From positions 1 through 33,908 of the IMG/VR virus record IMGVR_UViG_3300035670_000784: a stretch of 33,908 bases of DNA, one strand, 5' to 3'. This DNA is from a virus (taxonomy: Duplodnaviria; Caudoviricetes). Positions 2,522 to 33,908 of this stretch are shown here, piece after piece (positions within the stretch are counted from its first letter, which is position 1; each line of letters opens with the position of its first letter). The notes beneath the pieces were generated by a model. It was not told the origin of the DNA and ran no database searches. It saw only the letters and a program-made list of their open reading frames with translations. Both the position numbers and the translations under genes were made by a program.

Positions 2522-2616
2522 GCCCCGACAAAGAATACCTCGCAGCAATCTGCACAATGCTACTTGTAACGGCAGTAGCAATTATTTTAGTAATCCATCT
2601 AATATTAAATATATAA
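2518..2616 (+). CDS. Small membrane peptide (32 aa)
   Basis: MSPDKEYLAAICTMLLVTAVAIILVIHLILNI*; overlaps both neighbours (ATGA, TAATG). Not in the track. Confidence 0.55.
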   Translation: MSPDKEYLAAICTMLLVTAVAIILVIHLILNI

Positions 2617-3086
2617 TGGAAGTTTATAAAAGTATACCAAATTACGAAGGAAAATATATAGTTAGCAACTATGGAAACGTTAAAAGTTTATTGCGAGGAA
2701 GAGAAAAACTATTAAAACCAAGCATTATAAATACTGGATATTTATTAGTTAATTTGCATAGTAATGGCATTGCAAAATCAAAATTAATACATCAATTAGT
2801 AGCTGAAGCATTTTTAAATCATAAGTCAGATGGTCATAAAATAGTTGTAGACCATATTGATGATAATAAATTAAACAATAATGTTGAAAATCTACAATTA
2901 GTAACTCAAAGATATAATGTATGCAAAACGCAAAGCAGATATAAATCTAAATATAAAGGTGTGCATCGCAATGGTTTAAAATGGAGAGCTGCAATACGTA
3001 TCGACAAAAAATTATTTTATTTGGGTACCTTTAACTGCGAACTTAAAGCTCATTTAGCTTATACAAGCAAACTTAAAACAATATAA
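2616..3086 (+). CDS. NUMOD4-HNH homing endonuclease with AP2-like C-terminus
   Basis: YEGKYIVSNYGNVKS (NUMOD4); HQLVAEAF...VDHIDDNKLNNNVENL (HNH); SKYKGV...KWRAAI...YLGTF (AP2-like). Confidence 0.88.
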   Translation: MEVYKSIPNYEGKYIVSNYGNVKSLLRGREKLLKPSIINTGYLLVNLHSNGIAKSKLIHQLVAEAFLNHKSDGHKIVVDHIDDNKLNNNVENLQLVTQRYNVCKTQSRYKSKYKGVHRNGLKWRAAIRIDKKLFYLGTFNCELKAHLAYTSKLKTI

Positions 3087-7776: not shown

Positions 7777-8103
7777 ATGGCAAACGAAGAAAACTTAATA
7801 CCTGCACAAAAAGGTGAAGTAAGAAACCCTAACGGTAGACCAAAAGGCAGTAAGAACCGCAGCACTATTGCGCGCAGGTGGTTAGAAGTTAATCAATCGC
7901 TAAAGAACCCATTGACAGGGGAAAGCGAAACAATGAGCCAAGAGGACTTAATGACGTTAGCGCTGATTAAAAAGGCACGTGAAGGAGATGTTGCAGCTTA
8001 CAAAGCTTTGATGGATTCCGGATACGGAGCACCGCTTCAGCAGATAGAACAAACAAACATAGAACAACCTTTATTCCCAGATGTTGATAACCAAAATATT
8101 TAA
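7777..8103 (+). CDS. terS: Terminase small subunit (putative)
   Basis: KGEVRNPNGRPKG...KAREGDVAAYK motif, directly upstream of terL. Confidence 0.7.
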   Translation: MANEENLIPAQKGEVRNPNGRPKGSKNRSTIARRWLEVNQSLKNPLTGESETMSQEDLMTLALIKKAREGDVAAYKALMDSGYGAPLQQIEQTNIEQPLFPDVDNQNI

Positions 8104-8106
8104 TTA

Positions 8107-9309
8107 ATGTTTAAAAGAACCACAGCGATAAACAGAATTCTTGCTCTGAAAAAACGAATTAAAATCGTTCAGGGCGGGACTTCTGCTTGTTTGCCCCCTG
8201 TGAATTAAGTAGCAGGGGGAGATAATGCAGGAAAAACATTTGGCATTTTGCCGATATTGATTGACAGAGCAATTAAACAACCTAACGTAGAGATAAGCGT
8301 AGTTGCTGAAAGTATACCGCATTTGCGTCGCGGTGCCCTTAAAGATTTCTTGAAAATTATGCGCTGGACTAACCGGTACGTAGATGCGCAGTTCAACAAA
8401 TCGCTATTAACCTACACGTTTAAAAACGGATCCTATATTGAGTTTTTCTCGGCTGATGATTCTAGCAAGCTGAGAGGAGCAAGGCGCGACGTTTTGTACA
8501 TAAACGAGTGCAACAATATTACGTTTGAGGCATACAATGAGCTTTCGATCCGTACCAAGCGCGAGATATATTTAGACTTTAACCCTGCTAATGAGTTTTG
8601 GGTACACAAGGAATTAAAAGACGAACCGGATGCAGATTTTATTATCCTTACATACAAAGACAACGAAGCACTTGATCAGAGTATTGTCACACAAATTGAA
8701 AAGAACCGTGACAAGGCTACGACGTCCAACTATTGGGCTAATTGGTGGCGCGTTTATGGTTTAGGCGAGGTCGGTATGCTAGAGGGCGTAATCTTTGAAA
8801 ATTGGAAAGAGATTGACAAGGTGCCGCAAGATGCAAGGCTGGTAGGCATAGGTCTTGACTTTGGATATACTAACGACCCGACGGCTATTATTGAAGTATA
8901 CAATTGGAACGGCAAGCGAATTGTAAACGAATTAGTTTACCGCACAGGGATGTTAAATTCAGACATAGCAAAGGCGCTACCTTCCGGCGTTATTATTTAC
9001 GCGGATAGCTCAGAACCGAAATCAATTGATGAGATTAAGCGCTACGGAAAGACGATCAAAGGAGTAACTAAAGGCAAAGACTCTATTAATTACGGAATAG
9101 ATGTAATGCAGCAGCAGGAGTATCTAGTAACCAAGCAAAGCACCAACCTAATCAAAGAACTTCGCGCGTACTGCTGGGATGTTGATCGAGCAGGCAACAG
9201 AGGCCGTAACCCTGCTGGAGGATTGGATCACGGTATTGATGCGCTGAGATACCACGAGATGGAAACGCTAGGCCTAAAGAAAAACTACGGCAACTATAAC
9301 ATACGCTAA
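8107..9309 (+). CDS. terL: Terminase large subunit (PBSX-like), interrupted by a 42-nt in-frame insert with TAA at 8206-8208
   Basis: ATG 8107 is in frame with track ORF 8248: IVQGGTSA[insert]GKT Walker A, LYINE Walker B, DFNP, GLDFGYTNDP, YADS, DHGIDALRY. Confidence 0.9.
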
Positions 9310-16496: not shown

Positions 16497-17384
16497 ATGG
16501 AACTAATAGAACTAATAATAGACGAACGCGATCCTATGCACGGCATTGAGGCGGTTTCCGTTGTAGAATATCCGGCGATTGAGGAGAACTTTATCGCCTT
16601 AGCTAAACACGAAGTGCAGCTAAAGGAGATTGATCAGGAAAAGCGTATTTTGATGGGCCCAGCTTTAACGCCTAACAAAAAGATTTACCGAAAAAACGAA
16701 AAGACAAAACGCGAGTGGGAAATATACTTTTCTGAGGACACGGTGCGCAAGGCTTCGCATTTATTCCAAATGAAGTCAAACCAAAATAATGCAACTTTAG
16801 AACACGCTACGGATCTTGACGATATGTCCGTAGTTGAAACGTGGATCATTGACGATCCTAAAATGGACAAGGCTAATTTGTACGGCTTTGATTTACCTAA
16901 GGGAACTTGGATGATTTTAATGAAAGTAAACAACGATGAAGTTTGGAAAAAAGTAAAAGCCGGAGAAGTTAAAGGCTTTTCAATTGAAGGTTACTTTGCG
17001 GATAAATACGAAATGAGCATCCAAAACAAAGAAAAAGAAGAACTGATTGCTTACCTAAAAGAAATCTTAGACGTTAAATTAGAATCTTATTCAGACTATC
17101 CAAAAGCTGCAAGCGAAAACGCTAAAATCGCTTTACGCTGGGCAGATGAAAATGGATGGGGTTCTTGCGGTACTTCCGTAGGTAAAGCCAGAGCCAACCA
17201 ACTAGCAAAAGGCGAACCGATCAGCAGAGATACAATTGCCCGAATGGCAGCGTTTGAACGCCATCGCCAAAACTCACAAAAAGAACTAGGCGACGGATGC
17301 GGCCGTTTAATGTGGTTAGCATGGGGAGGAGATGCCGGCGTAGAATGGGCGCAACGTAAATTAGAACAACTTAAAAACCAATAA
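16497..17384 (+). CDS. XkdF-like prohead serine protease with an extra C-terminal domain
   Basis: GPALTP...TLEH...VVETW...GTW...KGFSIEG. Confidence 0.75.
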   Translation: MELIELIIDERDPMHGIEAVSVVEYPAIEENFIALAKHEVQLKEIDQEKRILMGPALTPNKKIYRKNEKTKREWEIYFSEDTVRKASHLFQMKSNQNNATLEHATDLDDMSVVETWIIDDPKMDKANLYGFDLPKGTWMILMKVNNDEVWKKVKAGEVKGFSIEGYFADKYEMSIQNKEKEELIAYLKEILDVKLESYSDYPKAASENAKIALRWADENGWGSCGTSVGKARANQLAKGEPISRDTIARMAAFERHRQNSQKELGDGCGRLMWLAWGGDAGVEWAQRKLEQLKNQ

Positions 17385-17386
17385 GA

Positions 17387-17584
17387 ATGGCAAAACAAAA
17401 AACACCAAGTTACTCAAGCCCAAAAGGAGGCAAGCGCGGTTGCCTGTGCGATAACGGAACTTACTCATCTAAATGCTGCAATGGCGATTTGCAAAACCAA
17501 GGAATTGGAAGCCTAGTAAATAGCAGCACGCAAACGGTCATAAACACGAATGAACCTAGAACTATTACCAACGTAAGCAGTTAA
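17387..17584 (+). CDS. Small Cys-rich protein
   Basis: RGCLCDNGTYSSKCC. Confidence 0.6.
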   Translation: MAKQKTPSYSSPKGGKRGCLCDNGTYSSKCCNGDLQNQGIGSLVNSSTQTVINTNEPRTITNVSS

Positions 17585-17635: not shown

Positions 17636-18250
17636 ATGACAGAAAGCAAGATTTTAAACAAAGTTCGCACGCTTCTCGGAATGGAAGTAAAGTTAGAACA
17701 AATGAAGCTAACGGATGGCGTTTCTATTTTAGAGGCGGATGCGTTTGAAGCAGGTAACGAAGTGTTTATTGTTACAGAAGATGATCAGCGTATTGCAGTT
17801 CCTGTAGGCGAGTACGATTTAGAAAACGGAATGGTTTTGGTCGTAGCTGAGGAAGGCCTTATTGCCGAAGTAAAAGAAAAAGAAGCCGAAGAGCCAGAAG
17901 CAGAAGTGGAAGTTGAAGTAGAAGGCGGCGGTAAAATCGAAGAAGAAATGGCTGCAGAAGCCGCTCCCAAAAAGACGGTTGAAAGCATTATTAAAGAAAC
18001 GTTCTTTAGCACAATGGAAAAATTGCAAGCTGAAAACGACGCATTGAAAGCAGAATTGGCAAAATTCACAGCGCAAACACCCGAAGTAGTTGCAGAAGAA
18101 GCGGCACCGGTTGAATTGTCAGCAGAGGAAGTAGAGCCTAAACCTATACAACACAATCCGGAAAATGCGCAGCCGGTCGAGTTGTTCAAATTAACACCAA
18201 GAAAAACGCGCTCAACAGTTGATTCTATTTTTGAAAAATTAAACAAATAA
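17636..18250 (+). CDS. Putative capsid scaffold protein
   Basis: Acidic, coiled-coil, directly upstream of the capsid gene. Confidence 0.6.
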   Translation: MTESKILNKVRTLLGMEVKLEQMKLTDGVSILEADAFEAGNEVFIVTEDDQRIAVPVGEYDLENGMVLVVAEEGLIAEVKEKEAEEPEAEVEVEVEGGGKIEEEMAAEAAPKKTVESIIKETFFSTMEKLQAENDALKAELAKFTAQTPEVVAEEAAPVELSAEEVEPKPIQHNPENAQPVELFKLTPRKTRSTVDSIFEKLNK

Positions 18251-32703: not shown

Positions 32704-32895
32704 ATGAAAGAGCTTATTATAAAAGAAATTCTAGATAGATACGAAAAAGCTATTAATGAATTATCATACTACAAAAGAAGAGTAGAAAATCACGAGCAAC
32801 AAATAAGAGCTGCTAACCGGGAAAATCAGCAGTTAAAATCTGATAGGCATTTTCTTGAAGCGCAATTAGACGAACTTAAAAAAACAAAACAATGA
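32704..32895 (+). CDS. Coiled-coil hypothetical protein
   Basis: 63 aa. Confidence 0.55.
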   Translation: MKELIIKEILDRYEKAINELSYYKRRVENHEQQIRAANRENQQLKSDRHFLEAQLDELKKTKQ

Positions 32896-33110
32896 ACTTA
32901 AAGCTACAAGTAGAAGACCCGATTGTCCTCAAAGTAATGAGCAAGTTTTATGACCGATCACAACGAGGAATAGAGAAGTACGGTACAATGTTAACACGAA
33001 CTGATTTAAGTGCGTTAGAATGGCTTAATCACGCTCAGGACGAAGCTATGGACTTTTGTTTGTACTTGGAGCGTTTGAAAGACGAAGTGAAACAATTTAA
33101 ACAAGGATAA
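32892..33110 (+). CDS. Conserved small phage protein, copy 2
   Basis: Homolog of 467..724 with a divergent C-terminus. Confidence 0.7.
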   Translation: MNLKLQVEDPIVLKVMSKFYDRSQRGIEKYGTMLTRTDLSALEWLNHAQDEAMDFCLYLERLKDEVKQFKQG

Positions 33111-33149
33111 GGGGTAAAAATTGCCACATATCTAAACACGAAATGTAAA
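33101..33149 (+). repeat. 49-nt array leader, copy 2
   Basis: Identical to 708-756. Confidence 0.9.
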
Positions 33150-33165
33150 CTAAACAACAAGAACA

Positions 33166-33372
33166 ATGAAAACAAAATTTTTACAAAGTGTAGAGAGATA
33201 CACAAACAAACAACAAGGAAAAACAGGATACAAGGCTATTTATAGCAATGGAATTGATTTTCAAACATTATTCTTCCCAATTAGAAATGGAGTAGATGTT
33301 ATTAACATTCCTTCAATTATTAACTCAGCTCAAACAATAGATGATTTAGAAGCTATTGGGGCAGAACTTTAA
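33166..33372 (+). CDS. Cassette gene MKTKFLQ, copy 2
   Basis: 4 aa differences from 1219..1425. Confidence 0.75.
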   Translation: MKTKFLQSVERYTNKQQGKTGYKAIYSNGIDFQTLFFPIRNGVDVINIPSIINSAQTIDDLEAIGAEL

Positions 33373-33384
33373 ACAACAAGAACA

Positions 33385-33576: not shown

Positions 33577-33810
33577 ATGAAAACAGCAGTAGAATGGCTT
33601 GAAAAAGAAGTAAACCAATATGGAATTTTAACAAAAGGCTTAGTACTTAATCTTCTAAGTCAAGCTAAAGAAATGGATAAACAAGCCCACAAAGAAACTT
33701 GGGATGTAGCACATCAAGCGGGTAGATTTGAAGGCAAAGGTATTGCAGAAGAAAATTGGCAAACATTTGAAGAGTATTGGGATGAAACCTTTAAACAACA
33801 AGAACAATGA
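33577..33810 (+). CDS. Cassette gene, MKTAVEW family
   Basis: Bounded by repeats; ends ETFKQQEQ like 777..1007. Confidence 0.75.
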   Translation: MKTAVEWLEKEVNQYGILTKGLVLNLLSQAKEMDKQAHKETWDVAHQAGRFEGKGIAEENWQTFEEYWDETFKQQEQ

Positions 33811-33908
33811 AACAAAAACACACTTGGATTGATTCGTGTTTAGGTAATTATGATTGGTATAGACAAATAAGAGGTGGAGTTTGGTATCAGCACGTTTATA
33901 CTGATGAT
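33807..33908 (+). CDS. Truncated copy of the MKQKHTW cassette (= 1004..1105)
   Basis: Part of the 127-nt overlap. Confidence 0.75.
   Translation, partial: MKQKHTWIDSCLGNYDWYRQIRGGVWYQHVYTDD

Follow-up and report, generated by a model that had tools for sequence, protein, structure and literature searches.

The natural cases of translational bypassing named in the portions of the literature examined are gene 60 of phage T4 and its homologues, the yeast mitochondrial byps, and a candidate in Streptomyces phage Hau3. According to the consulted text of one preprint, the MobA cassettes of gene 60 shift their take-off between Gly and Asp codons with matched landing codons, and they protect against nicking (bioRxiv 10.1101/2022.08.31.505936); the same text summarises the Magnusiomyces mitochondrial byps as mobile, 27–55 nt long, tolerant of wobble at the landing site and AU-rich in their 3′ part. 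For the Hau3 terminase, the sections consulted describe UUA gaps of 7–10 nt, present in 3 of 100 ter genes and proposed to be regulatory (Antonov et al. 2023, PMC10732093). Stop-hopping has been described in synthetic E. coli constructs, and no natural in-frame stop-hop was known according to the consulted part of that account (Atkins et al. 2016, PMC5009743).

The window (the whole stretch of 33,908 nt that was analysed) is a contig of phage origin, on which PHROGs identify genes for head, tail, lysis, and recombination functions. From the ATG at 8107, the frame of its large terminase gene, terL, reads MFKRTTAINRILALKKRIKIVQGGTSA-CLPPVN*VAGGDN-AGKTFGIL, and a 42-nt insert with a TAA stop at 8206–8208 splits the TerL P-loop as GGTSA|GKT. 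The initial annotation had stated that removal of this stop-containing insert restores GGTSAGKT, and reading of the frame bore this out: by arithmetic, the joined gene would encode a TerL of 386 aa, which is the length of 118 of 120 listed intact homologs. The closest intact proteins (120 listed) all have QGGTSA followed by GKTF (116) or SKTY (4). Judged by sequence comparison, the 42-nt insert is probably a translational bypass cassette, which ribosomes would skip. The genes at this place are the following:

7777..8103, + strand: probable small terminase gene, 108 aa, DUF5681 (Pfam; the terS role is suggested by position)
8107..8187, + strand: terL exon 1, 27 codons, MFKRTT...IVQGGTSA, cassette type (by exon-1 identity to loci that bear an HNH nuclease gene)
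8230..9309, + strand: terL exon 2, encoding GKT, the rest of the ATPase, and the nuclease domain (Pfam Terminase_3 and Terminase_3C; PHROGs)

In 126 of 184 loci, the gene immediately before terL belongs to the DUF5681 family. The product of exon 2 matches solved terminases and gave the sole terL match in the window (a single tblastn hit); compared with the related locus L001, exon 2 has a dN of 0.02 and a dS of 0.81. As had been claimed, there is no in-frame start codon between the stop and GKT, and the next one is a TTG at 8248, past GKT. The insert occurs with 0 differences in public contigs X1 and X2, which come from two samples of one study, and contig X4 from another study carries a variant with seven differences and no gap. 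Neither an assembly error nor a lesion accounts for it, because at least 63 distinct inserts are present in related phages, whose terL evolves under purifying selection. In such phages, gene callers predict a truncated TerL.

The insert and its immediate surroundings can be divided into these parts:

8173..8187, + strand: predicted small 5′ hairpin that arises from synonymous codon choice and holds the take-off codon in its 3′ arm (−4.7 kcal/mol)
8185..8187, + strand: predicted take-off codon GCT, Ala27 (sequence, insert comparison)
8188..8193, + strand: 6-nt spacer TGT TTG (5–7 nt in the family)
8194..8219, + strand: core hairpin CCCCCTGT / GCAGGGGG with a 10-nt loop and the in-frame TAA at 8206–8208 (folding)
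8220..8226, + strand: AU-rich tail with no earlier cognate landing triplet (dinucleotide count)
8227..8229, + strand: predicted landing codon GCA; the next codon to be decoded would be GGA 8230 (sequence, insert comparison)

In the core stem, CCCCCTGT (8194–8201) pairs with GCAGGGGG (8212–8219). For the 81-nt region, the predicted folding energy is −28.3 kcal/mol (z −2.9), a value reached by 2 of 200 shuffles. An in-frame GCA lies inside the stem at 8212, so a ribosome would have to pass the hairpin folded or unscanned. One long stem that unites the two Ala codons had been proposed; its core stands, but the outer pairing is specific to the window, and in 51 of the 63 listed inserts the predicted stem begins 5–6 nt past the take-off codon. 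The supposed P-loop mimicry of VAGGDNAGKT did not hold up, as it simply reflects one reading frame of the stem's G-run and disappears in relatives with 43–44-nt inserts. The G-run together with an out-of-frame ATG in the insert tail of the window was considered as a restart signal and rejected because it is not conserved. An Rfam search gave no match below E 2.2. Features of group I and group II introns (a catalytic core, a terminal G, or GUGYG...AY ends) are absent from the inserts, which are 32–45 nt long with variable ends.

Wider scans provided 732 sequences, of which 338 match TerL; 336 of these were parsed, and 154 have an insert. Many of the 154 are repeats of one contig, and they reduce to at least 63 distinct inserts of 32–45 nt, all in the TerL P-loop of related phages, in 89 contexts and about 21 sequence clusters, so counts over the 63 inserts are not independent. 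Insert counts are lower bounds and not a prevalence. Some scans required GCN at one or both ends, and others fix GGN before AAR, in which case the Gly landing codon is set by the search pattern. Among the best 80 closest loci, 3 carry an insert (one sequence), 75 are intact, and 2 are truncated; a scan based on the loop placed 18 of 18 matches in the same terL P-loop. Many 42-nt candidates from the GCN scans were false, as intact TerL has A[ASC]KT 14 codons past GGTSA, and they were removed by taking the first KT motif. No insert-bearing terL was present among the matches listed from a GTDB genome scan with a loose pattern, the cultured phage FpV9 has an intact terL without the insert, and a heuristic scan of the window plus 2.2 Mb of loci, with matches judged by eye, revealed no evident insert of this kind in other genes. 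The hosts are probably Bacteroidota; the nearest cultured TerL is from Flavobacterium phages (54%).

Homologs with structured inserts in the same motif, which the initial annotation had named as a check, do exist. All 63 listed inserts fold better than base-shuffled controls, with a median z of −5.4. Covariation was assessed on an alignment of 37 inserts out of the 45 at the Ala position: 89% of cells were paired and 38 cells changed on both sides, and 0 of 500 shuffles reached either value; the fraction of covarying pairs with two-sided change (5/8) was not above shuffles (249/500). Where enough sequence was available, exon 2 is open in 61 of 63 insert-bearing loci, and over 94 non-independent pairs the median dN/dS is 0.04 and the maximum 0.097; by these two measures, insert-bearing terL genes appear to be in use, and the notion of a one-off lesion can be set aside. 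The reading frame of exon 2 is lost at loci L106 and L122 (145 and 79 codons in, respectively), through assembly errors or in dead alleles.

The codon before the insert recurs as the last codon before resumption, and its identity tracks the insertion position. In the 63 listed inserts, the site is after the Ser codon in 6, at the Ala position in 45, and after Gly in 12, and the matched pairs are TCN/TCN (6), GCN/GCN (34), TCG/TCT at the Ala position (1), and GGN/GGN (12). Take-off and landing codons share bases 1 and 2 in 53 of the 63 and all three bases in only 12. Their third bases are different in 51, and 51 of the landing codons end in A. The remaining 10 are not fully matched: nine are GCN/GTN, and one, in L367, is unmatched. 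The 43 inserts from scans that placed no constraint on these codons divide into 33 matches, nine GCN/GTN, and one unmatched, with eight Gly landings set by the pattern. Val was found at the Ala position in 0 of the 120 close intact proteins listed, so the 3′ copy looks re-paired; we infer that, in the GCN/GTN inserts, tRNA-Ala re-pairs with the 3′ codon by U.G wobble and the codon is not decoded. Two further loci, found without selecting for an insert, also follow the rule: in these GGTSSSKT hosts the Gly position has a Ser/Ser pair, and the 6-nt spacer is unchanged (L736, TCG/TCA; L808, TCT/TCT).

A C-run begins 5–7 nt past the take-off codon in 63 of 63 listed inserts, whichever the codon, and the fourth base past it is U in 97%. 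The 5′ hairpin has a median of −3.8 kcal/mol in the 63 listed inserts versus −1.3 in 133 intact contexts, and the Ser codon is TCY in 55 of 63 versus 24 of 133, both comparisons being uncorrected for shared ancestry. The G-run lies 1–12 nt from the landing codon over the listed inserts (7 nt in the window), a range that argues against a fixed mini-Shine-Dalgarno. After the stem, dinucleotides matching the take-off codon number 0 in 63 of 63 listed inserts, although few are expected because the tails are short and AU-rich. No insert-specific residues stand out in the nascent peptide, and exon-1 peptides resemble intact ones.

Insert lengths in multiples of three had been anticipated, but only 36 of the 63 listed have them; lengths modulo 3 are distributed as 36/14/13, and 27 inserts shift the frame. 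A stop is present in the take-off frame of all 36 frame-preserving inserts, compared with 26/36 and 15/36 in the other frames, and the four stop-free inserts all shift the frame. Between stops and frameshifts, every listed insert ends ribosomes that read on. The A-site codon itself is a stop in only 9 of the 63 hairpin inserts, and the stop comes one codon later in 25; in the window it comes seven codons later, after sense TGT.

A reduced form of the interruption was found in 5 of the 15 loci of one scan (L813 [= L742], L818, L819, L822, and L824), where only 5 nt are inserted at the terL P-loop. The sequences are ACG TA ACT, ACG TG ACT, ACG TG ACG, ACC TG ACC, and ACT TA GCT: a stop directly follows Thr, and its last base is overlapped by a Thr codon in four cases and by near-cognate GCT in one. 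The frame is open for 353–361 codons beyond the insert. L813 and L819 lie behind an HNH gene resembling the terL-adjacent type, in L819 by sequence resemblance only. Five bases without a hairpin are hardly an intron, and a tRNA hop fits them. The other 10 loci of that scan were dropped, as L816 and L826 have an intact terL in another frame and eight are other genes.

As a pattern in sequence, a codon pair that tracks position, combined with frame-shifting lengths and the 5-nt form, is the signature of peptidyl-tRNA hopping. On this model, the ribosome would slow at the main hairpin, which lies 6 nt ahead of the P-site codon, and peptidyl-tRNA-Ala would leave GCU at 8185–87 while the small 5′ hairpin closes behind the ribosome. 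The main hairpin would be passed without scanning, hiding the GCA at 8212, and the tRNA would re-pair with the first Ala codon past the hairpin, GCA at 8227–29, to give full-length TerL of 386 aa; without a hop, translation would end at UAA 8206 with a product of 33 residues. The trigger is the weak point of this reading. Most of what is known to trigger the gene 60 hop is lacking here, with the take-off codon outside the main stem, and frameshift hairpins dock in the A site at a spacing of 11–12 nt (PMC8861025, in the part consulted), so the shorter 6-nt spacer counts against a hop. Hop efficiency may be low.

Set beside the consulted account of gene 60 and MobA, the locus shares a short non-coding gap in an essential phage gene, matched ends that follow the codon of insertion, a hairpin, an AU-rich 3′ part, and a free-standing homing endonuclease with a replacement piece of the host gene, in an arrangement that survives loss of the nuclease. 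The target there is the topoisomerase large subunit, whereas here it is the terL P-loop, and there the gene is split into two proteins with added termini, unlike in the terL family. In the same account, the gene 60 take-off codon sits in the main stem-loop, which has a UUCG-type loop, and is directly followed by a stop or rare codon; in terL it is outside the stem, a UUCG-type loop is absent, the window loop is 10 nt, and a stop directly follows in 9 of 63 listed hairpin inserts and in five of five 5-nt inserts. Gene 60 further has a mini-SD 5–7 nt before the landing codon (7 nt from the G-run in the window, 1–12 nt in the family) and a nascent-peptide signal; no such peptide signal is visible in the terL family. 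The probable Bacteroidota hosts and the inclusion of a 5-nt form also set the terL family apart from what is described there.

The initial annotation had listed several ways in which the insert might be skipped, and the comparative data favor the ribosome hop and speak against readthrough. In the window alone, where the insert is in frame with one stop, stop-codon readthrough, internal re-initiation, a dead gene, or an assembly error might each seem sufficient, but the chance that any of them is correct is negligible. The 27 of 63 listed inserts that shift the frame exclude readthrough, which would also add 14 residues to the P-loop; re-initiation would find its next in-frame start past GKT; and a dead gene or an assembly error is contradicted by the strong selection on exon 2 and by the insert in independent assemblies. 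A micro-intron, excised from the mRNA by a host or phage nuclease and ligase that recognise the hairpin, is unlikely. The conserved and covarying stem, the tolerance of any length, and the lack of a consistent slow codon past the take-off site would suit it, as would a U.A pair and a purine mismatch at the stem base (U at +4 pairs in 49 of 63 listed) and the 2-nt, RNase III-like overhang that cuts after GC on both arms would leave in the window. Excision does not, however, predict codon-phased duplicated codons that change with position, have a free third base, and are both conserved, and it cannot cover the hairpin-free 5-nt form, which is also found beside an HNH gene. The specific idea of RNase III plus a ligase arose from the GC/GC ends and was dropped once TC/TC and GG/GG ends appeared, as these are not self-complementary. 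Nor do the inserts share an invariant terminal G or AY end, and Rfam gave no match. The RNA-library contig X20 spans the insert uncut and the joined form was unseen, which is weak evidence, being from contigs only, with X20 no proof of transcription.

Hairpins flanked by short repeats are deletion-prone, and the closest relatives of the window are intact. Skipping could accordingly be placed at a copying step, with RNA polymerase realigning or with some replicating genomes deleting the hairpin precisely and supplying TerL. This is very unlikely: the repeat is only 2 nt and codon-phased, with third bases that differ in 51 of 63 listed inserts, there was no 42-nt joint in the sequence runs examined, and the intact relatives differ throughout exon 1 and are therefore not precise-deletion products of the window allele. 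Micro-intron removal and polymerase skipping, both raised initially, leave the codon-phased matched ends and the 5-nt form unexplained. A different possibility is that ribosomes do hop, but at low efficiency and without programming. Since few TerL copies are required, background hopping between matched codons might suffice, with the hairpin selected mainly at the DNA level against a nuclease. Low-level stop-hopping without signals has precedent in the part consulted of bioRxiv 2024.12.09.627546, and the 5-nt form has no hairpin. We give this version a similarly slim chance, as a fixed 5–7-nt spacer across positions, a near-invariant U (97%), and a synonymous 5′ hairpin point to signals keyed to the ribosome.

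Programmed bypassing is also favored by the genes that accompany the inserts. Of 66 insert-bearing loci, 18 have a NUMOD4-HNH gene directly upstream that ends at the terL start, compared with 1 of 118 intact loci (Fisher p 2e-8, uncorrected for kinship). When the search began from the nuclease, with 12 aligned HNHs of insert-bearing loci as the query, the 10 closest matches among those listed (48–67% identity, seven new contigs) all precede an interrupted terL; the exception is a more distant HNH beside an intact terL in L168. A remnant of an old terL start precedes the nuclease in 5 of 28 nuclease loci, and in L140, L141, and L160, it reaches KRIKII, just short of the GGT motif. These surviving starts suggest an element made up of the nuclease, a new exon 1, and the insert. 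The cassette would have arrived as this mobile element, with the NUMOD4-HNH gene, a replacement terL 5′ end, and the insert, which would break the nuclease target in conserved P-loop codons and leave the protein unchanged. Nuclease immunity gives a simpler purpose than the limiting or timing of packaging that had been suggested. The best reading of the sequence evidence is that the insert is a homing-endonuclease immunity cassette that would be skipped by ribosomal bypassing.

The window itself is mosaic at this point. Its exon 1, compared over the 66 nt that precede the Ser codon, shares 89% identity with that of the HNH-bearing L106 and L134, whose downstream gene is only 56–68% identical to that of the window; in the true nearest relatives, L001–L013, exon 1 is 65–71% and the downstream gene 82–88% identical. 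No nuclease gene is present at the terS/terL junction of the window, where the following feature was found:

8081..8107, + strand: probable scar, consisting of an ATG, eight codons, and a TAA overlapping the present ATG (junction comparison with L002, L014, L106, L134, and L136)

The ATG at 8081 is at the place where terL starts in intact relatives, overlapping the end of terS, and where HNH-bearing relatives carry the nuclease gene. We infer that the window received the cassette and then lost the nuclease, leaving a short scar. On an exon-2 tree, the insert trait changes 21 times over 177 tips (shuffled mean 50.5); the trait is clustered but patchy, and the change count cannot tell gain from loss.

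Other genes are found at the same junction. A second nuclease-like family upstream of terL, which we take to be GIY-YIG-like from its motif and which has no Pfam hit, is not enriched (4 of 66 insert-bearing versus 5 of 118 intact loci). It lies directly upstream of an intact terL with an AGT Ser codon in L038, L047, L050, L057, and L062, and beside an insert-bearing terL in L308, L394, L399, and L440; this nuclease may use the terL site. In L140, L142, L255, L260, and others, extra genes (a DNA methylase in L142) lie between terS and an insert-bearing terL, which marks the junction as a hotspot for incoming genes. The window has a NUMOD4-HNH gene with a weak AP2-like tail at 2616–3086, 5 kb from terL, but by position and by the start of its sequence, it does not look like the terL-adjacent type.

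The mechanism had been put forward as undescribed, which is not wholly the case, as T4 gene 60/MobA is a close functional precedent. General hallmarks of bypassing are found at the level of sequence, namely matched or wobble ends (53/63 plus nine GCN/GTN) and a gap that blocks decoding at any length. The Hau3 candidate, in the parts of its description consulted, is likewise a possible bypass in a terL gene at conserved junctions, but it has a rare UUA codon as trigger, another terminase family, and another host, and no homing endonuclease link is mentioned there for its gaps, whereas the terL inserts have one. When UUA was sought at the 5′ end of the gap, the first gap codon varied and was TTA in 4 of 63 listed inserts. 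The byps, as summarised in the consulted text, resemble the inserts in size range, mobility, wobble at landing, and AU-rich 3′ part; they differ in having an untranslatable codon past the take-off site and 81 sites, whereas the inserts occupy one motif of one gene in bacterial viruses. The synthetic stop-hops, as far as described in the part consulted, share with the 5-nt class the order of take-off codon, stop, and matched codon; in the 5-nt class, the final base of the stop belongs to the landing codon as well, and hopping would shift the frame. A term search of the available Manning and Atkins text (bioRxiv 10.1101/2022.08.31.505936) did not find the word "terminase", and a literature search, with subscription journals and bioRxiv supplements outside its scope, returned no paper on terL P-loop inserts.

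On balance, we lean towards the view that these inserts form a family of programmed ribosome jumps that arose independently and that homing endonucleases have carried into the terminase P-loop across aquatic phages. The signal would be portable between Ser, Ala, and Gly codons and would need no A-site stop, relying on a hairpin two codons ahead of the P site and on a synonymous 5′ hairpin; together with the 5-nt Thr stop-hops, it would make up a natural series, with the simplest hop at one end and a jump of 45 nt at the other, and would illustrate how bypassing can originate as nuclease self-immunity. If so, this would be a second homing-linked bypass family with dozens of variants in take-off codon, gap length, and stop position, in which the minimal requirement for a ribosome jump would be directly testable and which would suggest a trigger unlike that of gene 60. 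Bypassing would then stand beside introns and inteins as a recurring route for homing endonucleases into conserved motifs, and the terL insert would be a compact candidate recoding part.

In the remainder of the window, a search for tRNA genes found none, and a search for sigma-70 promoters and terminators showed no excess, the sigma-70 model being unsuited to Bacteroidota promoters. A 17-nt leader that ends in ATG occurs in nine exact copies before small ORFs (at 763, 990, 1205, 1969, 2280, 33152, 33371, 33563, and 33793), suggesting a shuffled array of small-gene cassettes. The window ends share blocks of 87–94% identity in a different order (467–583, 947–1105, and 1193–1435 versus 32892–33008, 33750–33908, and 33140–33382), which is not a clean terminal repeat; these are duplicated cassettes or a strain mosaic. 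The ORFs at 16497–17384 and 17636–18250 match the two halves of phrog_24921, with protease-like and structural hits, and a 65-aa Cys-containing ORF (17387–17584) lies between them.
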